A stretch of 20,054 nt of DNA from Nanobdellota archaeon (GCA_038046385.1 JBBSWH010000018.1:1-20054); one strand, 5' to 3'. Shown: positions 4,838 through 19,996, counted from the stretch's first letter. A program made the numbers and translations. Notes: generated by a model from the sequence alone, not told the origin.

Positions 4838-5362
4838 TCAAGCGCTCTTAGGAGCAACGTTATGGACAATGTTCTCCTTTGCAGGCTTTGTCATCTTTGT
4901 AGCATGAACTTTTGGATGCTCTTTCTTCAATTCTTTAATTTCTTCCTTTTCTATCTTCTTTGCTTCTGTCGCCTTTTCTTCTTTTGCTTCCTTTACTTCA
5001 GCTTCAAGCTTTTCTTCTTTAGTGTCTGCCTTTGTTTCCTTCTTTGAAGATTTTTTTTCATCAACTTTAGGAACATCTATTTTAGCGCCGAACAATTCAG
5101 CAACAACTTTGCCTTTGTCGTCTTTTGTTACTGTTACTTTAATGTGATGCGGAGGATTTTTCATTCCATGCTCCCACAATTTCATGTTCAAATGCCTTCC
5201 AAGGTAAACATCTTCCGATTTCATGTGCTTTGTTAGGAATTCCCGTACTGCTCTTACAGCTTTCTTTGCTTTTCTGTAAGGAGGAACTTTCAAAGTCTTG
5301 CTTCTAAGCGGGATTATATAGGTTCTTTCCAATACTTGCTTTGATTCTTCTTTCTTTGCCAT
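4838..5362 (-). CDS. rpl31e: 50S ribosomal protein L31e with long Lys/Glu-rich C-terminal extension
   Basis: LERTYIIPLR...RKAKKAVRAVREFLTKHMK...LNMKLWEHG..NPP; follows rpl39e. Confidence 0.95.
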   Translation of the reverse strand: MAKKEESKQVLERTYIIPLRSKTLKVPPYRKAKKAVRAVREFLTKHMKSEDVYLGRHLNMKLWEHGMKNPPHHIKVTVTKDDKGKVVAELFGAKIDVPKVDEKKSSKKETKADTKEEKLEAEVKEAKEEKATEAKKIEKEEIKELKKEHPKVHATKMTKPAKENIVHNVAPKSA

Positions 5363-5364
5363 GT

Positions 5365-5538
5365 TTAAGCCTTCGTCTTTGTCCTTCTCCAGCTTCTCTT
5401 CTTTTTAGTGTGACGTCCTGGGTGGACTTTTCTTGATTTGCCGTATATCTTTGGAACTGTCCAAAAAGGAGCCCATCTGGTTTGCTTTCTAAGCTTAGCC
5501 AGCCTTTTCTTCCTGCTTGGATGTTTGTATCTTGCCAT
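5365..5538 (-). CDS. rpl39e: 50S ribosomal protein L39e (57 aa, not in ORF track)
   Basis: My translation: MARYKHPSRKKRLAKLRKQTRWAPFWTVPKIYGKSRKVHPGRHTKKKRSWRRTKTKA; canonical position before rpl31e. Confidence 0.93.
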   Translation of the reverse strand: MARYKHPSRKKRLAKLRKQTRWAPFWTVPKIYGKSRKVHPGRHTKKKRSWRRTKTKA

Positions 5539-10724: not shown

Positions 10725-10803
10725 GGTTTTGGTTGTTGGCTTGAATAAGAAGAAGGTTAGGGCTATGGCATTTGATGGATAGATAATCGAGCGACTCTTA
10801 TCA

Positions 10804-11037
10804 TTAATTTTCATTTTTTTGAGTATCACTATAGACTATTACACCAATAGCTCCCGCAGTCCACGAAAGAGAATTTTCAATTAGATTCATAACTGCTTCT
10901 GCTTCTTGTAAATGGGTTCTAGCAAATGTTTGATTTTTAGTTTTATATTGGATTGGTACTATTAAAATTCCTATTGCTTTTGGATTTATTTTTTGACCGG
11001 CAGCAATTTTAAGAAAATCGTGAACAACTCGTATAAC
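10804..11037 (-). pseudogene. 5'-truncated gene, possibly the C-terminal half of a BglII/BstYI-like restriction endonuclease
   Basis: 77 open codons VIRVVHDFLKIAAGQKINPKAIGILIVPIQ...AIGVIVYSDTQKNEN* beginning at the GTT of site 2, with no upstream start. Family call is by motif resemblance (D.LK...IGILIVP) only. Confidence 0.65.
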
Positions 11038-11118
11038 AATGGACTTTGGTGAAGTCGCCGAAGGCGATTTGGGTGGAGAAACCCGTAAGGTTTCAGAGTC
11101 GGTTAAGCCCTGTTAAAT
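11031..11118 (-). repeat. attC-like site 2
   Basis: GTATAAC-AATGGACTT..GAAGT-CGCCGAAGGCG-ATTTGGGTGGA-GAAACCCGTAAGGTTTC..TAAGCCCT-GTTAAAT. Confidence 0.8.
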
Positions 11119-11986
11119 GCCCCGACGACCGAAGGGAACCTTACTGTTCACCGGAACAAGGATTTGAGAGATTTATCGTTCTCTTTAGATAAATTTTGAA
11201 GGACCTGAAATATTAGTTCACAATTCGAAGCCCATATGCCTAATAAATGAAGTGAGATCCCCGCGTCCTAGAAGAAGATTCGGCATCTTGATGCTAGTAA
11301 CGTATGCTTCTCTCTCCTTATTGTTATCTTCTCTAACGTAGACTTTGATGAGCATACTGCAGGGGTATTCCTCTTCAGGATTTTTTGAGTCAACCCACGC
11401 ATCACTTGCTTTTTGGATGGCATCTGGGACGTAGTATCCGCTCCCAGAATCATAGAATGAAACCAGCATAGCCCCTTCAGGTGTAGCACTTATGAAATAA
11501 TCATCATGGGAATGCTTCCAGCGGCGACGCAGATCTCCAGAAGCAACTTCCCCGCGCGGATTAATTATTGGAGCCAACAGCCCGGGATAGAATCTTAGTG
11601 AGATGTCATAAGGACTCTCATCTCCTTCATCGGAAAGACTCTCTCTTTTCAAGTACTTAACCTGGATAAACTCTTGAATTTGGATGTTATGAGGAGGATT
11701 TCCACTGTAAAAATGATTCACTCCTTGCGGAAACAGAAGCCAGTACTCGGCGCTTGAGTTATGAAGAACAGCGCCTAATCCAGGCATAGTTTTTAGCGGC
11801 AATTGCTGATGGAGACTTAAGAATTCTTCAATCCCGAGCGCATCAAAACCACCTTCCCTAATTCTTTCCAGAGTCGCATTAAAAGCCTGTGCGATATTAT
11901 TTTCCAAAGGCATACTACTGGGAAGTAATCCTTAGTTTATAACGGTTTTGAAACATCCACCGGATATTGACACGCGAGGTATTTAA
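11037..11986 (-). mobile_element. Gene cassette B (single unknown gene)
   Basis: Ends GTTAAATGCCCCG (11112-11124) and CGAGGTATTTAAC (11975-11987) are complementary with one G-T and one mismatch. Confidence 0.7.
11218..11913 (-). CDS. Hypothetical cassette protein
   Basis: 231-aa ORF filling cassette B; TTATAAA TATA-like box about 23 nt upstream. Confidence 0.8.
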   Translation of the reverse strand: MPLENNIAQAFNATLERIREGGFDALGIEEFLSLHQQLPLKTMPGLGAVLHNSSAEYWLLFPQGVNHFYSGNPPHNIQIQEFIQVKYLKRESLSDEGDESPYDISLRFYPGLLAPIINPRGEVASGDLRRRWKHSHDDYFISATPEGAMLVSFYDSGSGYYVPDAIQKASDAWVDSKNPEEEYPCSMLIKVYVREDNNKEREAYVTSIKMPNLLLGRGDLTSFIRHMGFEL

Positions 11987-12095
11987 CATCGCGGTTTTCT
12001 GAAGTTTTTTGGCGAGGCATCCCACGCCAAAAAATTTGGGAGAGCTACGAACGAGCTTGGCGAGCGAGAAGTGAGCCAGTTAACCGCTGTTAAAT
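11981..12095 (-). repeat. attC-like site 3
   Basis: ATTTAAC-ATCGCGGTT..GAAGT-TTTTTGGCG..CGCCAAAAA-ATTTGGGAGAG..TAACCGCT-GTTAAAT; GCGGTT/AACCGC pair perfectly. Confidence 0.82.
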
Positions 12096-12260
12096 GCCTT
12101 TGCCCTGCGGAGTGGGGCAAAGTTTCGTTCGAAAAGTTCGAAAACCCGCCGTACGTAAATCCCCGTTGTCGCCGCAGCCCCCTCTTAGACTACCACTGGA
12201 CATCTCTGGGCAAGGTTTATAAAGCAGTTCTATATAATATATGAAAATAAAGGAAGGGAT

Positions 12261-13118
12261 ATGCCAAACAATATTTTAAGGGGAATCTTGAATATAGCTT
12301 CATTTAAGAATAATGACCTAAAAGGCTATGCTTCTACTTACTTAAATAGAATCAATGCAGTTGGTGAACAATTAGAATTTTACATTAAAGATGCAATTGC
12401 CTCTTCCTTCAAGCTGCCTCATGAAAAAAAGCAAGAAGCATATTCTAAAGTTTTTGCTTGGCTTGGCAACCAAAACCACCCTCCAGACATTATAATCAAG
12501 AATGGGGACGCTTTTGAGATAAAGAAAATTGAAAGCTTAAAAAGTGCGCTTGCCTTGAATAGCTCTCCGCCAAAAAATAATCTTCTTGCTGATGACATCA
12601 GAATAACAGCTGACTGCAAAAAATGTGATGGTGGAAATTGGAAAGAAAAAGAGTTATTTTACGTTATTGGCAATGCCAAAGGAGGCATTATAAATTACCT
12701 TTTCTTTGTTCATGGCACTTGTTACGCCGCGGATCATGAAGTTTATGAGAAAGTTCACAGCCCAATAAAAAAAGAAGTTGATTTTGTCCTTGATTCTCTT
12801 GGATTGGAAAAGGGCGAAACTGTAGAATTAGGAAAAGTTAAAAGAGTAGACCCTCTTGGAATCACTGAACTAAGAATCAGGGGGATGTGGAGCATAGAAA
12901 ATCCACTTAATGTTTTTGAAGACTTTTGCCAAATTGAAGATAACAAATTTCATTTATTTGCGTTAATAAGGAAAGATAAGTATCTTTCTTATCCTAAAGA
13001 AGACATCAAAGAATTGGAGTCCAATAAGGAAATTTCTGTTAAAGACGTAAAAATTAAAAGCCCAAATAACCCTGCTAATCTAATGGAGGCAAAGCTAATA
13101 GCTTTTACAATAAAATGA
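12261..13118 (+). CDS. Type II restriction endonuclease, NgoPII family (likely GGCC)
   Basis: NRINAVGEQLEFYIKD, LGNQNHPPDIIIKNGDAFEIKKIES, LALNSSPPK, VDPLGITELRIRGMWSIENP; overlaps a C5 MTase gene. Confidence 0.88.
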   Translation: MPNNILRGILNIASFKNNDLKGYASTYLNRINAVGEQLEFYIKDAIASSFKLPHEKKQEAYSKVFAWLGNQNHPPDIIIKNGDAFEIKKIESLKSALALNSSPPKNNLLADDIRITADCKKCDGGNWKEKELFYVIGNAKGGIINYLFFVHGTCYAADHEVYEKVHSPIKKEVDFVLDSLGLEKGETVELGKVKRVDPLGITELRIRGMWSIENPLNVFEDFCQIEDNKFHLFALIRKDKYLSYPKEDIKELESNKEISVKDVKIKSPNNPANLMEAKLIAFTIK

Positions 13119-14155
13119 AAATAGCATCATTTTTTTCAGGAGCCGGAGGATTGGATTTAGGCTTTACTAATGCAGGCTTTAAGCTAGCTTTTGCAAATGA
13201 CAATTGGGAAGGCTGCTGGGAAACTTTTGAAAAAAACCATAAAATACCAATCAATAAAAAATCAATCACCAAAATAAAAGCTGATGAAGTCCCTGATGTT
13301 GTTGGATTTGTTGGCGGGCCGCCTTGCCAAAGCTGGAGCCTTGCCGGGGCGATGAGAGGAATAAATGACCCAAGGGGCAAAGTGTTTTATGACTATGTGA
13401 GGCTAATTAAAGGCAAAAAGCCATTATTCTTTTTAGCTGAAAATGTTGCAGGGCTATTATCGAGCAGCCATTACCCTGAATTTATGAAAATAGTCAATGC
13501 TTTTAAGGGAATTGGATACAATGTTTCATTTAAAATGCTTGATGCAAATGATTATGGCGTTCCACAAGAAAGGAAAAGAGTAATTGTTGTTGGCTACCAT
13601 GAGAAATTAGGAAAAAAGTTTGAGTTTCCAAGCCCATTAAGCCAAAAGCTAACACTAAAAGATGCAATTTCTGATTTGCCAGAGGCCACTCCCGCAAGCC
13701 ATTATAATAAAACAAATGGAAAATTAGATATTTATAACCACGAATACATGAATGGCGGATTTTCTACTATTTATATGTCAAGAAACAGGGTAAGAAACTG
13801 GGATGAGCCTTCATTTACAATTCAAGCAGGCGGCAGGCATGCCCCTTGCCATCCAAAAGCCCCAAAAATGAAGCTAGTTGGGGAAGATAAAAGAGAATTT
13901 ATTAAAGGCAAAGAAAACCTTTATAGAAGATTATCAATAAGAGAATGTGCCAGGATACAAACGTTTCCGGATGATTTTGTATTTCATTATGATAATGTTG
14001 CTGATGGCTACAAGATGATTGGAAATGCTGTCCCTGTTAGATTGGCTGAAGCGCTGGCAAAGCAGATTATGAAAGACCTTAAAGAAATAAAAACCCAAGA
14101 AAAATGGCAGACAAATTTAGCAAGGCAAAAAGAAGCGCAATTATGTCTAGAATAA
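13115..14155 (+). CDS. dcm: DNA cytosine-5 methyltransferase (M.HaeIII/M.NgoPII-like)
   Basis: FSGAGG, GGPPCQSWS, ENV, QERKRV, TRD FSTIYMSRNRVR.WDEPSFTIQAGGRH, YKMIGNAVP. Confidence 0.96.
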   Translation: MKIASFFSGAGGLDLGFTNAGFKLAFANDNWEGCWETFEKNHKIPINKKSITKIKADEVPDVVGFVGGPPCQSWSLAGAMRGINDPRGKVFYDYVRLIKGKKPLFFLAENVAGLLSSSHYPEFMKIVNAFKGIGYNVSFKMLDANDYGVPQERKRVIVVGYHEKLGKKFEFPSPLSQKLTLKDAISDLPEATPASHYNKTNGKLDIYNHEYMNGGFSTIYMSRNRVRNWDEPSFTIQAGGRHAPCHPKAPKMKLVGEDKREFIKGKENLYRRLSIRECARIQTFPDDFVFHYDNVADGYKMIGNAVPVRLAEALAKQIMKDLKEIKTQEKWQTNLARQKEAQLCLE

Positions 14156-14511
14156 GGTCAAAAAATACTTCTTTAGAGGTTGAGTTCAGGAAGCTACTTT
14201 GGAAAAATGGTCTTGGGCGGTACCGCATTCATTATAACTTGCCCGGTAAGCCTGACATTGTTTATGTTTCTAAAAAAATTGTAATTTTTCTTGATGGCGA
14301 CTTTTGGCATGGCTACAATTGGAAAAAATTGGGCAAAGTGCCGCCTAGAAAATACTGGCAGAAGAAAATACAAAAAAATATTGACAGGGCTAAAAAATAC
14401 AACAAGATGCTTAAAAAAGATGGCTGGAAAGTTATTAGGATTTGGGAGCATGATGTGAAGGAAAGTCCCGAAGAGTGCATCAGCAAAATAATAAATATTC
14501 TTAATTTTTAG
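14104..14511 (+). CDS. vsr: Very short patch repair endonuclease
   Basis: MADKFSKAKRSAIMSRIRSKNT..E, LPGKPDIV, IFLDGDFWHG, GWKVIRIWEH. Confidence 0.95.
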   Translation: MADKFSKAKRSAIMSRIRSKNTSLEVEFRKLLWKNGLGRYRIHYNLPGKPDIVYVSKKIVIFLDGDFWHGYNWKKLGKVPPRKYWQKKIQKNIDRAKKYNKMLKKDGWKVIRIWEHDVKESPEECISKIINILNF

Positions 14512-14516
14512 TAAGG

Positions 14517-15035
14517 TTAGCATAATTTATTTTTCAAATAATCTACAAAAAACAATGCTGATTTGTATAACTCATAAATCTCTACTGAAGTTTTCTCTAA
14601 GAAGAAAGTAGCAAAATTTTGATGTATTAGCCTATCCCTTGTTAATCCTATTTCGAGGAAAGACTTAATCCCTTGCTCTAACTCTGGCGTTGATTTTACA
14701 TCGTCCTCAGCTTGTTTTTTAAATTCATCTCCAAAAATTTTAAAGAATCTATTGGCATTTTTGTCTGTGTCAAAGTCAAAATAAGTGTAGTATTGGCGAT
14801 TAATCCCCTTAAACTTACTAAAAAATACCAATCTGCCATCTTTTATTTTTGTTTCTACAAACTTATTCAATATATCCAAAATTTGTTGCTCAAAATAACT
14901 AGCAATCGCTATAACTAAAACTTTTTTAAAATTATTATCCGCCTCACTTCTCAGTGAAGGTTCTTCTTTTTCTTCTAAATAATGTAATAATTCCAAGTGC
15001 CTTTTATAGAATTCATCTATTATGCTGTCTACCAT
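14517..15035 (-). CDS. HEPN-domain protein (RiboL-PSP/MAE_28990-like)
   Basis: IASYFE N-terminal motif and RDRLIH (RxxxxH); directly downstream of the DUF262 gene. Confidence 0.8.
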   Translation of the reverse strand: MVDSIIDEFYKRHLELLHYLEEKEEPSLRSEADNNFKKVLVIAIASYFEQQILDILNKFVETKIKDGRLVFFSKFKGINRQYYTYFDFDTDKNANRFFKIFGDEFKKQAEDDVKSTPELEQGIKSFLEIGLTRDRLIHQNFATFFLEKTSVEIYELYKSALFFVDYLKNKLC

Positions 15036-15044
15036 TGAAAATGA

Positions 15045-16211
15045 TCATTGCAATAAAATTTCTTGGGCTCTTTTTATTCTTGTTAAGACATTCTTTTTAC
15101 TAGTGGTTTGTCTTTGAATTGCCTCACTAAAATCTTTGTCTTCCCTAAGTGTGTTAAGCTTATCAGCATCAATTACTTGAACATCAGTATCATCACTTTG
15201 ATAAGGTTCATATGTAGCAGCAACAAAAACAGCCTCAAACATTGAAACATTAAATTGACCTGATTGTGTTAAAAAAACTTTATTAGGTAAACCACCACAC
15301 GCATCTAAAAATTTTTCAAATAACTCTTTTAAGTTGTTTATTTTTTGTATAGTGAAGGTTTTACTTTTTTGAGAAAATGAATTAAGAAATTTAACCATTG
15401 AAGGCTTATAACTTTCATTTTCCATTAACATACCAAACCCCCTAACTATGATTTCTATATCCTTCATATGTAAATCTGGTTCTGGTTTTGTTAATCTTCT
15501 CCACTTACTATCCAAGTTTAATTTTGAAAGCATATCATAGAAATCTGAATGGTATAAACTAGCTCTTATTTCTTGTGGATTTAAATTCATCCCGCCAGTG
15601 TTTAACCTGTAAAATATTTCGTACATTGCAGAATGATCGTCTGGTGGATGACTTTGTTTTATTATAACAATTCTTATAGTTCTTAAGTCGAATGTTTTTT
15701 TATCATTATCCTCTAAAGTTGAATAATTTAAATCATCTAGCCTGTTATTAAGTTCAGGAACTAGTTCCGTCAGCTTTAGATTAAAATCTGTAAAATAATT
15801 ATTATTTTCAAGGAGCCTATCTGGAATTTTACCTTCAGTGTCAAAGACTTTTCTTAATTCAATCCTCTTATCTGGTCTAGGGAATCTTTTTTTAATAAAA
15901 TAATAGATTGTCATAAGTCTTTGTTGACCATCTATTACCAGAAAGTCATTCTTATCCTTTTCGTATAAAAATACTTGAGGAACTGGCAACCCCATAATTA
16001 TGGACTCTATTAATTTGGAAGCTCTTTTTATGTCCCAAACATAATTTCTTTGAAACCCGGGAATCTTAACTATGCCCTTTTCCATAAAATCAAATATGGT
16101 TTTTGTATTAAAATCATTTGGAGATGAAGTTATATTATATTCTAGAGGTGTATCTTCTCCTTCATAATCATCTTCCTCAGGCATTACCCAATTTTCTTCA
16201 TTATTTGCCAT
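15045..16211 (-). CDS. DUF262 (GmrSD/ParB-like) domain protein
   Basis: IPGFQRNYVW, LIESIIMGLPVP, VIDGQQRL, IFYRLNTGGMNLNPQEIR. Confidence 0.92.
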   Translation of the reverse strand: MANNEENWVMPEEDDYEGEDTPLEYNITSSPNDFNTKTIFDFMEKGIVKIPGFQRNYVWDIKRASKLIESIIMGLPVPQVFLYEKDKNDFLVIDGQQRLMTIYYFIKKRFPRPDKRIELRKVFDTEGKIPDRLLENNNYFTDFNLKLTELVPELNNRLDDLNYSTLEDNDKKTFDLRTIRIVIIKQSHPPDDHSAMYEIFYRLNTGGMNLNPQEIRASLYHSDFYDMLSKLNLDSKWRRLTKPEPDLHMKDIEIIVRGFGMLMENESYKPSMVKFLNSFSQKSKTFTIQKINNLKELFEKFLDACGGLPNKVFLTQSGQFNVSMFEAVFVAATYEPYQSDDTDVQVIDADKLNTLREDKDFSEAIQRQTTSKKNVLTRIKRAQEILLQ

Positions 16212-16327
16212 AAATACTGGAGGTCTTTAACAGTTTAAATTATTTACTATTATTTATCGCACTAAGTAGGTGACAACATAAAGGGGATTTACGTTTTAGT
16301 ATCAGGGTAGGCGGGTTTTCGAATTGC

Positions 16328-16466
16328 ATTTAACATCGGCGTTTGGCGAAGTTTCTAGGGCGTGCTTTAAAGCAAGGCTAGGGAGTTGCGAAGCAAAAAT
16401 TTGGGTGGAGTGGAGTTCGGCTACGAAGTGGACGAACGGAACGTAACCTCATAATTCCTGTTAGCC
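16328..16466 (-). repeat. attC-like site 4
   Basis: ATTTAAC-ATCGGCGTTTGGCGAAGT...ATTTGGGTGGAG (16399)...TAATTCCT-GTTAGCC. Confidence 0.82.
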
Positions 16467-16558
16467 GACCGAGCCTACGAAGTGGGCGAGGCTTGAGTTT
16501 TCTTACTGCCGAGAATCAGATAGGTGCCGTAGTTTTTACTTACTTTAATATCAATAAC

Positions 16559-17513
16559 TGCGAAGCAGAGTATTGTTTAGAGAGAGCTTTTTTTATCGAA
16601 ATCTTGATTGTTATTTATGTATTCGTTTGAATAATTTTTCAATATTAACCATGACATTATCAATATGTTTTTTAAGTAGTTTAACTATTAGGTATCTTCC
16701 AATAGCAATTATTACAATTGTAAAAAATACGTATGACCATTTAAATGAATAACTAAAAGCCACTCCTGGTTTATAATAATTTAATGTATTTTGAGACATG
16801 GATTCATCTAGAAGAGATTTATCATAAGATAGAATTAGTTGCCCATCAAGGTAATCTTCATTTGCTGGCTTTGATATAATGGGATTATAACTTCTTTTAA
16901 ATAAAAAACATTCTGGCAAAATTAGATTTATTTTCCTTATTCTGTTATCTAGCATGATGGTTTCGAAGGTAAATTGCTTTTTACCATCAATTTTTTTTAC
17001 ATAGTCTTTAACTTCATATGCAGTAATTAGATAAAACTCATTGAAAGGGGGAATTTTAGTATTAGAAATGTCCAATATATAATAATTGAAAGCATCATCA
17101 TTGTAGTAATAAAATTGATTTGAACGATCAATTTGGTTATTGTCTATGGATTTAATTAACTGTGAATTCAATATTTTATTTACACCAAAGGTATAATAGT
17201 TTTCTTTCAAGTCTAGTATAGAATTATTATAATTAGGTATATGGAAATGTCTTGTTACAGTTATATCGTTAGAGAAGCAATGTAATTTAAGTTCTATGTC
17301 AGTAAATGATTTGATGTCGTTAATTCCTGCAGATGAAAAACTAGATAATAAAAGGATGAATATGATTAAACTGATGATTGTTTTCATTATATAATGGATT
17401 GTTTAGTTATATATAAAACATTTGATACTCTATTAACTGTTCTGAACTAATTAATTTATTAAAGGAAAATAATCTTTAATAAATCATTGCGAAGCAGACT
17501 AGTGTTTAGAGAG
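16559..17513. repeat. 26-bp imperfect direct repeats flanking the 258-aa gene
   Basis: TGCGAAGCAGAGTATTGTTTAGAGAG (16559-16584) vs TGCGAAGCAGACTAGTGTTTAGAGAG (17488-17513), 24/26 identical. Confidence 0.8.
16611..17387 (-). CDS. Exported protein with signal peptide and C-terminal TM anchor, function unknown
   Basis: MKTIISLIIFILLLSSFSSA signal-like N-terminus; YVFFTIVIIAIGRYLIV TM followed by a basic tail. Confidence 0.8.
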   Translation of the reverse strand: MKTIISLIIFILLLSSFSSAGINDIKSFTDIELKLHCFSNDITVTRHFHIPNYNNSILDLKENYYTFGVNKILNSQLIKSIDNNQIDRSNQFYYYNDDAFNYYILDISNTKIPPFNEFYLITAYEVKDYVKKIDGKKQFTFETIMLDNRIRKINLILPECFLFKRSYNPIISKPANEDYLDGQLILSYDKSLLDESMSQNTLNYYKPGVAFSYSFKWSYVFFTIVIIAIGRYLIVKLLKKHIDNVMVNIEKLFKRIHK

Positions 17514-17687
17514 GGGGCTGTTTTTGGTTCTTTTTCTGAAAAAGAAAATTTATGCTAGGACATTAGGGAGTGATTCAAACGTCCTAACTCACTAAGTAGT
17601 AGATTGGTAATCTACCGAGTTTGACAACTTCTCTACCCCAGTATATTAGATATGAGAATAAATAATTAATTTGAAATATTTTAACAT

Positions 17688-18176
17688 TTAAAATTTTTGT
17701 TCAAATAGCTCATCTAGTAAGTCATATATTGATTTAAAGTCCTTAAACTTTTTAGGCTTTTTGATGCACTTCTGTAAAGAACTCTTGTCTAGGTTTCTAA
17801 TTTCTTCAATTAGTTGCCTACTTAAATTAGGTTTTTTATCTCTATACACTTTTCTTGTTTTATGACAATCCAAGAAACCTTCAAAATTTTCTTCACTAAA
17901 ATAGATATAATTTTTATGTTCTTTAATTTCATCAGTTATCTTCTTTTGATTCTTGAAAGTGTCTGAATCGTAAACATAAACTATTATTACAGATAAGCCT
18001 TTTAAAAATTTTGATTTTCTTATGGCATTCACTATATCATTTGTTTTAGAATTGGGCTTTAATACATAATTATTTGAGATTATTTTGTTACCCTTTAATG
18101 CTTCAAAATAGTTTTTTTCAGAATCCCCTTCACAATATATGTGAACTATTTTTTTACTCATTCTCTTTATATACAT
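17688..18176 (-). CDS. RloB/AbiLii-like (TOPRIM-like) protein
   Basis: IYCEGDSEKNYF, YVYDSD and SEENFE motifs; overlaps the ATPase gene (start probably ATG 18161). Confidence 0.8.
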   Translation of the reverse strand: MYIKRMSKKIVHIYCEGDSEKNYFEALKGNKIISNNYVLKPNSKTNDIVNAIRKSKFLKGLSVIIVYVYDSDTFKNQKKITDEIKEHKNYIYFSEENFEGFLDCHKTRKVYRDKKPNLSRQLIEEIRNLDKSSLQKCIKKPKKFKDFKSIYDLLDELFEQKF

Positions 18177-19383
18177 GGGGAAATCCTCCTAAAACACCTT
18201 CTCTGTAATACTCCCCATAATCTTTGTTGATTTTAGGATTATTCTTAACGACATTATGAAGATTAATTATTTTGCTAACTGAATCATCTTTTTCAATTAT
18301 ATTAATTTGATCACTCCTTAAATAGTTTAATACTTCTGGTTGGTGTGTCGTAAACAAAAGTTGAGACCCGTTATCTTTTTTTGAAAAACTATTTAGGATA
18401 AATTCTACTATTTCGATATTATAAGATGTTTCAATTTCATCATAAAGAATTATGGAGTCTTTTGATAATTTTAATAAGTTATAAAATATTAAAATAAACT
18501 TTTGTGTTCCACTAGATTCCGCGTTGAAATTAATCTTAATAGTTTTATTTTTATGTTTGTGGATTAAATCTAAATCCATAATTTCTTTCTCACTTATTTT
18601 TTGGTTCATGGTTCCTTTATCATCTGTTTGGATAAGTTCAATTGTCTTAATCTTTCTTTTAACTAATTCTAAATCACTAATCGAAAAATCAGCAAATGAT
18701 AAATTATCCAAAAGGTTGCCTTTCAACTTTTTATCTTTTAATAATTCAAAGTCTGGTGGCATATTGAACAAAGTATTAATTACAATTATTTTAGAAAAAA
18801 AATCATATATGGGTTTCAGTGTTTTTGAGTTTAATTGTACTGCTCTTGAAAGCATTAAAGTTTGAGGTATGACACTATGTGTTAATAGTTTTAATTCCTT
18901 CTCAAATTTTTTATTAGTAAATTGAAATCTTTTGTTAAGATTATCTTCATCCCTTGTAAAAATCTCTTTTGGTTTTTGTGTTTCATAAACTATTGCAAAT
19001 TCTTTTACTATTTTTTTATTTGTGTATGAAAACCCATAAACATATTTTTTATTTTCAGATATAAATGTTAGTTCAAATTCAGTAGGTTTTCCTTGTTCTG
19101 TAATAAAAGGAGAATACCTAATATTAGTGTCTACATTATGTTTTTGAGAATTTAAAACCATCTCTTTCATAAAGTTCAAACCTGAAAGTAAAGATGTTTT
19201 TCCTGAACCATTAACACCTACAAGTCCGGAAGTCTTTAAAATATCTAAACCATTTATTTTAGTTATAAACTTTGTTCCAGTTTGTTCTTTAGATTTTCTT
19301 TCAAAGCTTAAAACATCCCCTTCTTTGTATGAGTTATAGTTTTTTATTTTAAATTCAATTATCATATTCTTAGGAATGTACAT
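18154..19383 (-). CDS. RloA/AbiLi-like AAA_21 (ABC-type) ATPase; true start probably ATG 19365
   Basis: IEFKIKNYNSYK, Walker A GVNGSGKT, ESSGTQK, Walker B ILYDEIE, QLLFTTH, YREGVLGGFP. TTTAAATA at 19388-19395 is 23 nt from ATG 19365. Confidence 0.9.
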   Translation of the reverse strand: MYIPKNMIIEFKIKNYNSYKEGDVLSFERKSKEQTGTKFITKINGLDILKTSGLVGVNGSGKTSLLSGLNFMKEMVLNSQKHNVDTNIRYSPFITEQGKPTEFELTFISENKKYVYGFSYTNKKIVKEFAIVYETQKPKEIFTRDEDNLNKRFQFTNKKFEKELKLLTHSVIPQTLMLSRAVQLNSKTLKPIYDFFSKIIVINTLFNMPPDFELLKDKKLKGNLLDNLSFADFSISDLELVKRKIKTIELIQTDDKGTMNQKISEKEIMDLDLIHKHKNKTIKINFNAESSGTQKFILIFYNLLKLSKDSIILYDEIETSYNIEIVEFILNSFSKKDNGSQLLFTTHQPEVLNYLRSDQINIIEKDDSVSKIINLHNVVKNNPKINKDYGEYYREGVLGGFPHVYKENE

Positions 19384-19578
19384 CTAGTATTTAAATGTTT
19401 GCATTTTATTCATTATTTTCCTGTTTTCTTTTAAAAAATAATGGAAAATGAGAAAATAAGTCTTTTTTTAAACTTATTTTATTTTTAGAGCAACGAAATT
19501 GTGAGTATATATGTGCGTAGTGCCAGCCCCCTCTCAGTCTAAAGTAAGTAAAAATTTGGGTGAAGCGAAGCGTAACCG

Positions 19579-19890
19579 TTAAACTAATGTTAGAAAAATT
19601 CCTCTTACATTCTTCACTGCTTGAGTGATTAGTGCAGATATTAGAGAACTGATTGCTCCACCAATATACCCATAAATTAATGTTATAATCTGCTGTGAAA
19701 GTAAATCTGCGAAAGCTGAGTCTCCAGAAGCAGCAACTGTTACCGTCTTAAGTGAAAACATAATCAAAGGAACTGCACCAGCTACACCTGCAACCGTTCT
19801 AAGATCTTTAACTATCTTATTTGAAAAAGCAAAACCGAGTCCAGCACTACCTAATATATCAATAATTAATACAAATACATCAATTTCCAT
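19579..19890 (-). CDS. Small three-TM membrane protein
   Basis: 103 aa hydrophobic; stop codon lies inside GTTTAAC. Confidence 0.75.
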   Translation of the reverse strand: MEIDVFVLIIDILGSAGLGFAFSNKIVKDLRTVAGVAGAVPLIMFSLKTVTVAASGDSAFADLLSQQIITLIYGYIGGAISSLISALITQAVKNVRGIFLTLV

Positions 19891-19996
19891 ATATAACAGG
19901 AAATAGTTACACTTTTTATTTTTTTCTACAGTTTAACGAAGGCACCTATCTAAAGGATTCGAGGTTTACCGACGGAGGAGGCAGTAAGAAAATTTT

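Follow-up and report, generated by a model that had tools for sequence, protein, structure and literature searches.

Why should the two ends of a single gene cassette in an archaeal chromosome be complementary to each other well beyond the core of its recombination sites? The question is raised by a stretch of 20,054 nucleotides (nt) from a Nanobdellota archaeon (GCA_038046385.1, JBBSWH010000018.1:1-20054), here called the window, which is the entire contig C18 of a metagenome-assembled genome (1.28 Mb, 19 contigs, 85% complete). The left 9.3 kb of the window hold core archaeal genes (ribosomal proteins L31e and S19e, a Cbf5-type pseudouridine synthase and adenylosuccinate synthetase). The right half, from about 10.8 kb to the contig end, is a chromosomal, integron-like array of cassettes in this DPANN archaeon. 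Its cassettes are separated by attC-type imperfect palindromes that form one repeat family, are bounded by RYYYAAC and GTTRRRY, and lie at ~11031-11118, 11981-12095, 16328-16466 and from 19997 to the contig end. Cassette C is the 4.2-kb segment between the second and third of these sites.

Each end of cassette C carries one copy of the same module, in inverted orientation. The module consists of the core GTTAAATGC, a 14-nt block, a block of 8-12 nt and a 9-nt block, with two side hairpins added in the left copy. Similar modules bracket unrelated genes in many other DPANN archaea, and the two arms of a cassette covary.

Complementary arms of cassette C

An initial annotation, made from the sequence alone, had described four nested blocks of complementarity between the ends of cassette C, separated by side hairpins. 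All four blocks lie where it had placed them, pairing in 9/9, 14/14, 12/12 and 8/9 positions, and alignment shows them to be nested and collinear. The side hairpins are real as well, comprising a 10-bp hairpin at 12098-12122 and a small second one at 12123-12136. The two arms and the attC-like sites that they adjoin are composed as follows.

11981-12095, + strand: attC-like site 1 (attC1), an imperfect palindrome, recognised from the sequence, the repeat family and a hairpin fold
12089-12097, + strand: block 1, left core GTTAAATGC, putative crossover core; pairs 9/9 with 16326-16334, and homology to the related cassette L061 begins at 12088
12098-12122, + strand: side hairpin H1, present in the left arm only; 10-bp fold with stem CTTTGCCC..GGGCAAAG and loop TGCGGAGT
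12123-12136, + strand: conserved motif or mini-hairpin H2, TTTCGTTCGAAAAG (family consensus TTTCGTCCGAAAAG), from family comparison and covarying variants
12137-12150, + strand: block 2, left, TTCGAAAACCCGCC; pairs 14/14 with 16310-16323
12153-12173, + strand: blocks 3 and 4, left (ACGTAAATCCCC, GTTGTCGCC); 12153-12164 pairs 12/12 with 16283-16294
16269-16294, + strand: blocks 4' and 3', right (GGTGACAAC, GGGGATTTACGT), complementary to the left blocks
16295-16309, + strand: right-arm spacer, a small covarying side hairpin in most family members (e.g. TATCGTTGATAG, TTTCTCGACGAGAAAG), from the family listing
16310-16323, + strand: block 2', right, GGCGGGTTTTCGAA; pairs 14/14 with block 2
16326-16334, + strand: block 1', right core GCATTTAAC; pairs with block 1, and homology to the related cassette L142 ends inside it, at 16329
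16328-16466, + strand: attC-like site 2 (attC2), ATTTAAC ... GTTAGCC, from sequence, repeat family and fold

The first site, attC1, is bounded by ATTTAAC (11981-11987) and GTTAAAT (12089-12095) and folds into a 10-bp R pair, a 2-nt bulge and a 6-bp inner pair (GCGGTT/AACCGC). Among the arm blocks, only block 4 pairs imperfectly: GTTGTCGCC at 12165-12173 matches GGTGACAAC at 16269-16277 in eight of nine positions, and the odd pair is a G-T on the + strand. Since the homologue L142 has GGCGACAAC at block 4'/3', this G-T pair represents a single derived change in the window. The left arm holds 39 additional nucleotides between blocks 1 and 2, made up of H1 and the TTTCGTTCGAAAAG motif, and the right arm holds 15 between blocks 2 and 3.

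Chance complementarity within an AT-rich region is a natural first suspicion, as many weak inverted matches occur within the AT-rich cargo. Alignment of the left end with the reverse complement of the right end, however, scores 35, a value reached by 0/300 shuffles (mean 15.7, maximum 26). Mismatched ends score far lower: the left end of C with the right end of the neighbouring unit D gives 14, as does the left end of D with the right end of C. Unit D has a pair of arms of its own, unlike those of C in sequence and of the same architecture.

16498-16534, + strand: D-type left arm, TTTTCTTACTGCC .. AGATAGGTGCC; alignment score 27, reached by 2/300 shuffles
19935-19992, + strand: D-type right arm, GGCACCTATCT .. 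GGCAGTAAGAAAA, then TT and the next attC core, TTGGCTAAC; recognised from the sequence and its complementarity to the D left arm

Predicted folding gives the same answer. The initial annotation had offered, as one of two interpretations, that the arms extend the attC stem in the circular form of the cassette. When the junction was circularised in silico around attC2 and folded with DNA parameters, an extended stem was predicted on both strands (-65.9 kcal/mol on the + strand, -52.4 on the - strand). With the left arm shuffled, the same junction reached only -35.9+-2.6 and -29.2+-2.8 kcal/mol, corresponding to z-scores of -11.4 and -8.3. The circular junction with attC1 folds at -72.7/-66.8 kcal/mol (+/-), and the actual linear junction between C and D at -29.5/-23.3. 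A natural counterpart exists in locus L039, a contiguous junction with matching arms, which is predicted to form one continuous hairpin of ~300 nt (-77.9 kcal/mol, z -10.1). A generic seed-cluster scan for inverted repeats found 15 clusters in the window and 4 in shuffles, a measure that is noisy in AT-rich DNA and serves as a pointer only. Given the shuffle scores, the folding z-scores and the recurrence of the same arms in many other loci, chance is rejected and its probability is negligible.

A family of arms around unrelated cargo

The complementary sequence had been described as specific to this cassette. This is correct within the window and the genome, where blocks 2 and 3 have no second occurrence in 1.28 Mb and both arms and attC sites are confined to this contig. 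It does not hold beyond them, as the same arms bracket unrelated cargo in other DPANN archaea. A pattern of blocks 2 and 3, searched in one genome each of 185,579 species, returned two records with arms 92-98% identical to those of the window. In the first, from Aenigmatarchaeota (L006), a left arm at 81-146 and a right arm at 1908-1976 flank a DndB-like gene. In the second, from Woesearchaeota (L005), arms at 5297-5384 and 2406-2473 flank four other open reading frames (ORFs). The left arm was matched in 10 of 401 genomes sampled from the phylum, the window's own included. A metagenome scan with a looser pattern gave at least 120 stretches. Among the matches listed, 114 arms in 93 loci remained after a flank-context filter, which removed chance matches, many of them visibly GC-rich.

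The cassette-end module is therefore a widespread family, found around unrelated cargo in many DPANN archaea. When the largest ORF of each of ten two-armed cassettes was scanned, five gave Pfam matches above threshold, among them NUMOD3 with endonuclease I, NHL repeats, DUF7090, a phosphate-binding domain and a DUF475/TerC membrane protein. A sixth ORF matched below threshold only, and the other four matched nothing. The length of the cargo between the arms ranges from 27 nt (L109) to 4.9 kb (L113). At the lower extreme, L109 consists of a left arm, 27 nt and a right arm, and is thus a natural cargo-less palindrome (-46.7 kcal/mol, z -7.8), with an attC recognisable on neither side.

Covariation between the arms was assessed using left ends found by the H1/H2 motif, independently of the sequence downstream. 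This gave 51 distinct left ends. The strongest point is the 14-nt block, which occurs in six unrelated versions, each complementary to the block directly before 'TT + core' at the other end of its own cassette. These versions are TTCGAAAACCCGCC (cassette C), TTTTTGGATTTGAG (L094), TAAATTTGGAATCC (L024), TCGGGAGAAGGGGC (L027), TCGCGAAGGGACAC (L028) and TTTTCTTACTGCC (unit D of the window). In L094, L024, L027 and L028, the reverse complement of block 2 stands before 'TT + core' with 0-2 mismatches, while a control with reversed, non-complemented block 2 gave 0/13 matches. Variable positions of the core likewise covary from one cassette end to the other, with five versions seen.

The same is true for the inner blocks, which had played no part in arm detection. 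These match their own partner better than the partners of other cassettes (14.67 vs 11.71), a sum that 0/5000 permutations reached, and the difference persists when only the common class is considered (n=19; 16.33 vs 14.25; 0/5000). The side hairpins add a further layer. Of 42 distinct left arms, 39 fold into an H1 hairpin of 6 bp or more, whose stem occurs in 22 different sequences and whose loop is conserved. H2 shows paired changes such as TTGCG..CGCAA and CTTCG..CGAAG. These hairpins were folded one by one, as a MAFFT gap had put two hairpin classes out of register in the joint alignment. Covariation in homologous cassettes, on which the idea of a folded stem had been staked, is thus present in block 2, the cores, the inner blocks and the side hairpins, with the reservation that related sequences share changes through descent and that the counts consequently overstate independence.

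The partner of block 2 is found mostly across the cargo (23 of 39 left arms with room for one) and rarely across the attC, in the neighbouring cassette (3/38). The unit is accordingly the cassette, and an intergenic palindrome made of right arm, attC and left arm is rejected. Two other candidates were set aside. A promoter module duplicated at both ends, as the converging cargo genes of cassette C might suggest, is rejected because the single gene of L006 and the four same-direction genes of cassette X in L005 are both two-armed. Pairing at the RNA level is thought unlikely, since TATA-like boxes lie within the arms (12216-12223).

Cores, breakpoints and the role of pairing

The arms abut the cores of attC-like hairpins. 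Left-type arms follow the 3' end of an attC (..CTTGTTAAATGCC) and right-type arms precede the 5' end of the next (..TTGCATTTAAC), with two mixed cases (L100 and L133). Homology between related cassettes breaks at G|TTAAATGC. In the cassette C homologue L061 (83% identity), the match starts at window position 12088, with another attC before the same left arm. In L142 (87%), it ends at 16329 and a different attC follows the same right arm. In a third homologue, L086 (87%), the match runs from 11984 and includes attC1.

A census of related pairs extends this pattern. On the right-type side, homology ends 6-10 nt outside the 14-nt block, that is at G|TTAAATGCAA, in five independent pairs, one of which (L005/L111) is 100% identical up to the breakpoint. 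For the left-type side, five groups lose homology at the core and four within the arm (8-18 nt from the block), and between the window and L086 the break comes past the attC. These homology breakpoints point to a crossover between the G and the TT of the core. As breaks are found at both cores flanking an attC interior, these cores appear to act as exchange points, with the interior swapped independently of cargo and arms. Integron attC sites recombine as one selected, folded strand with extrahelical bases, and crossover takes place at one of their two cores only. Most junctions have 60-130 nt between their two cores. In L005 (~2395-2415) and L132 (~1960-1985), two cores lie a few bases apart (..GCATTTAATTCTTGTT..) without an attC interior, and resemble a deleted attC or a simple dif-type duplex site, in which a spacer of 6-8 bp is enclosed by two short inverted binding arms.

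If both strands of these near-symmetrical attC sites recombine, each end of the cargo would count as a cassette start and carry the same leader, and the arms could be a functionless by-product kept alike by gene conversion. This fits the breakpoints on both attC sides (five right-type pairs and five left-type groups) and the exchange of the attC interior independently of cargo and arms, as in window/L142 and in L061. It leaves unexplained why six unrelated block versions should be complementary at a fixed distance from the core, and why conserved, covarying side hairpins should be restricted to one arm. We consider such a by-product quite improbable.

A different reading treats the arms as terminal inverted repeats (TIRs) of a non-autonomous, cargo-carrying element similar to a miniature inverted-repeat transposable element (MITE). 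A transposase acting in trans would read them as duplex DNA, and attC cores would be preferred targets. The high conservation of the main arm class across archaeal phyla is in line with this, as is the cargo-less L109 without a recognisable attC on either side. So is the mosaic nature of the arms, which recombine among themselves: cassette Y of L005 is chimeric, and four groups break within the arms. Several findings argue the other way. No transposase was found among the five cargo genes of cassette C or the ten largest ORFs of other cassettes, although a trans-acting enzyme was not searched for. The flanks, ..AACCGCT | GTTAAATGC on the left and GCATTTAAC | ATCGGCG on the right (CCGCT | ... 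| ATCGG), show no target-site duplication. Six versions of block 2 at a fixed position, complementary within each cassette and with two in one genome, would need several co-evolving transposases. The breaks fall at the G|TT of an integron-type core, and the asymmetric, covarying side hairpins point to a folded strand.

Database searches add to this. Plasmid and phage sequence collections gave no match, and a known plasmid or phage sequence is rejected. A known RNA family is likewise rejected, as Rfam gave no match at gathering scores in the window, and for 11900-12300 a limit relaxed to E 1 yielded nothing but a meaningless hit to mir-606 (17.7 bits). The MITE-like reading is therefore unlikely, and the initial view of the structure as a folded stem rather than a transposon TIR is supported.

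On balance, we favour the explanation that the arms form a conserved cassette-end stem, pairing to extend the attC hairpin in a variant of the integron cassette. The repeats exist and are conserved, arms of the same cassette covary, they abut the cores, and homology breaks at G|TT. Pairing is probably the selected property. In a single strand or in the excised circle, the two arms would pair, and together with the core pair they would lengthen the attC hairpin outward by ~35-45 bp. The product would be an imperfect hairpin of ~270-330 nt with a four-way branch next to the cleavage point. This extended hairpin could be the substrate of a tyrosine recombinase, or could stabilise that substrate, and the enzyme might be the XerA-like recombinase found beside related arrays. 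The relevant form is presumably the circle or a local hairpin, rather than a clamp across 4 kb, because the circle needs no long single-stranded stretch and involves no competition with the neighbouring attC for the core.

Such a clamp was the other interpretation offered by the initial annotation: the arms would pair across the whole integrated cassette in single-stranded DNA, bring the two attC sites together and so direct the excision of large cassettes. The preference for partners across the cargo (23/39, against 3/38 across the attC) agrees with this. So does the report that, in bacteria, excision needs both attC sites to be folded simultaneously and drops with cassette length in some settings (PMC5371416). 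A role in excising large cassettes is nevertheless not supported by the cargo range of 27 nt to 4.9 kb. By the logic of the sequence, attC1 would also lose the R' partner of its own R box if the 9-bp core paired across the cargo. Okazaki fragments at the archaeal replication fork are short, and a single-stranded stretch of 4 kb is unlikely. No computation made here tells the clamp from the circle form. Taken together, we regard the clamp as improbable.

A search of the genome with TIGR02249, the integron integrase model, found nothing above the cut-off (best 129 and 120 bits, against 265), although the genome is 85% complete and the array runs off its contig, so that an IntI may sit in unassembled DNA. 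The two best matches cover model positions 1-179 with 236-315 and 6-175 with 229-313, and skip the middle. The recombinases adjoining related arrays are 261-271 aa long and are best described by XerA_Arch, at 211 and 200 bits against a cut-off of 220. In L071, the XerA-like gene follows directly after the last right arm and a short palindrome. It has the same relative orientation in L053 and L026, and a further copy stands at the very start of contig C1 of the window's genome.

If this XerA-like enzyme serves the array, its 5' end would face the array as in integrons, and the 'top' strand would be the - strand of the window. The + strand, which folds more stably, would then be the 'bottom' strand. 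The + strand is the more stable one in the junction folds, and H1 is more stable on it in 27 of 42 arms and on the other strand in eight.

A number of observations weigh against the arms as a recombination substrate. Sixteen of the 39 left arms have no partner in the sequence at hand, and in three of them (L093, L105 and L149) the room exceeds 5 kb. In cassette B of the window, the core alone matches (11/13), with a score of 16 that was equalled in 189/300 shuffles. The commonest arm class shows strong sequence conservation across phyla, more than pairing alone requires, which suggests sequence-specific recognition by a protein in addition, or recent spread. As the metagenome pattern fixed block 2 and part of block 4, the conservation of those blocks in that sample is partly built in. 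The link to the recombinase consists of adjacency in three loci and at one contig end, and L057 departs from the shared orientation. No strand bias is seen among the arm mismatches (7 vs 5), which therefore do not name the folded strand. Lastly, 20 public sequencing runs were found, mostly groundwater metagenomes and all as contigs, and the contigs of the four that were compared with the window contain no joint at 12089 or 16334, a comparison that cannot exclude rare forms.

A further, more tentative possibility is that these loci represent a distinct DPANN class of integron-like system. Its recombinase would be XerA-like, without the IntI domain, and its cassette-borne, covarying arms would give an attC hairpin of ~300 nt with a four-way branch at the cleavage point. 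Both strands would be used, and cargo and attC interior would be exchanged as separate modules. In that case, the site could extrude from duplex DNA without long single-stranded stretches, and the L109 palindrome would be an empty 'vector' with new genes placed at its apex, which bears on the origin of cassettes.

Known systems and other features of the array

What defines an integron cassette is a short core together with an attC hairpin. To our knowledge, nothing outside the attC has been thought to be part of the recombination site, and we know of no account of how cassettes are made. In the present family, the site seems to take in another ~45 nt of the cassette at either end, with covariation and side hairpins of its own. 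If the arms are functional, attC finders that use bounded models miss part of the site, archaeal arrays may differ in strand choice and hairpin extrusion, and the cargo-less palindrome becomes a concrete candidate for a cassette precursor.

Two Xer-based systems share some of these features. The attP of CTX-type phages is a long forked hairpin formed from two inverted sites in single-stranded DNA, on which XerCD performs one strand exchange. There, a phage genome integrates at dif, whereas the present case is a chromosomal array of many cassettes in which no dif site or phage genes were seen. In the pdif modules of Acinetobacter plasmids, varied genes are bracketed by inverted Xer sites and segments are exchanged independently. 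Those sites are simple 28-bp duplexes, in contrast to the long hairpins with attC-like interior and covarying arms described here. MITEs and foldback elements are similar in their long terminal inverted repeats and in having a cargo-less palindromic copy, such as L109. Unlike them, the present cassettes have no target duplication or transposase that could be found, end in integron-type cores, and have arms that covary instead of being fixed.

Archaeal integrons and clusters of attC sites lacking an integron-integrase (CALINs) were described in 2022, mostly as arrays without a nearby integrase (Ghaly et al. 2022, PMC9668308). The present array shares several features with them: a chromosomal array, promoter-poor cassettes, diverse cargo that includes defence genes, palindromic separators running from ..YAAC to GTTRRRY, homology breaks at G|TT, and cassettes whose first bases are complementary to the start of their own attC. 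It differs in four ways. Its end complementarity runs ~45 nt further, with three extra blocks and side hairpins; its arms are a conserved family common to unrelated cassettes; homology breaks fall at both cores that flank the attC interior; and the neighbouring recombinase is XerA-like, without the IntI-specific segment. The terms 'inverted repeat', 'palindrom' and 'stem' are absent from that main text (PMC9668308), and the attC and genome lists in its supplement may already include these loci. Literature searches returned no description of cassette-end complementarity beyond the core, nor of Xer-like enzymes next to arrays of this kind.

The cargo of cassette C comprises five genes.

12261-13118, + strand: NgoPII-type restriction endonuclease (Pfam PF09521, E 5e-86)
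13115-14155, + strand: C-5 cytosine DNA methyltransferase (Pfam PF00145, E 3.5e-94)
14104-14511, + strand: Vsr-type mismatch endonuclease (Pfam PF03852, E 3.4e-24)
14517-15035, - strand: RiboL-PSP HEPN-domain protein (Pfam PF18735, E 3.9e-11)
15045-16211, - strand: GmrSD N-terminal (DUF262) domain protein (Pfam PF03235, E 6.8e-33)

Multi-gene defence islands, here restriction-modification together with a GmrSD/HEPN pair, thus travel as single cassettes in these archaea. Defence genes are abundant in the array as a whole. The neighbouring unit at 17688-19383 (- strand) encodes an RloB-like protein together with an AAA_21 ATPase, a combination typical of defence of the OLD/abortive-infection type.

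At the left border of the array, contigs of three public runs (X2, X4 and X8) match the window rightward from 10799. Leftward, their sequence differs and terminates in the manner of an attC 3' end (..TTTGTTAAATCTG). Other cells of the population seem to have more of the array at 10799, where this genome joins chromosomal DNA. On contig C1 (L002), the recombinase gene is immediately preceded, in positions 1-175, by attC-like sequence and a palindrome (GTTTAAC..GTTAAAC), and this contig start may continue the window's array across an assembly gap.

The motif CACTGGACA(T) lies at 12194-12203, immediately upstream of the TATA-like box that serves the restriction-modification operon. It also occurs as a tandem pair upstream of XerA-like recombinase genes, at ~121-139 of contig C1 (L002) and ~975-995 of L053. 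As a shared regulator site, it may link the expression of the cassette with the recombinase.

A second conserved module, ..TGCG.AGCAGA.TAG..TTTAGAGAG(G)GGGCT.., is found in direct orientation at 16550-16596 and 17479-17525 and inverted at 12175-12190 and 19523-19545. The TTTAGAGAG module recurs in the array and in many related loci (e.g. L020, L021, L005 and L115), and in L020 and L021 it forms an additional nested inverted pair inside the arms. Contigs of three runs from two studies carry a joint from 16580 to 19541, with seven other letters between and 2960 nt skipped. The shorter side of this joint is 21 letters only, and the contigs may stem from a relative with an emptier D unit.

Within the D unit, 19546-19996 holds a short attC-like 3' half (..AAAAATTTGGGTGAAGCGAAGCGTAACCGTTAAACTAATGTTAGAA), after which come a 103-aa membrane-like ORF and, finally, the right arm. 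This short site also stands before the right arm in L020, L021/L039, L005 and L071, and the right arm may sometimes be a separate, ORF-less cassette.

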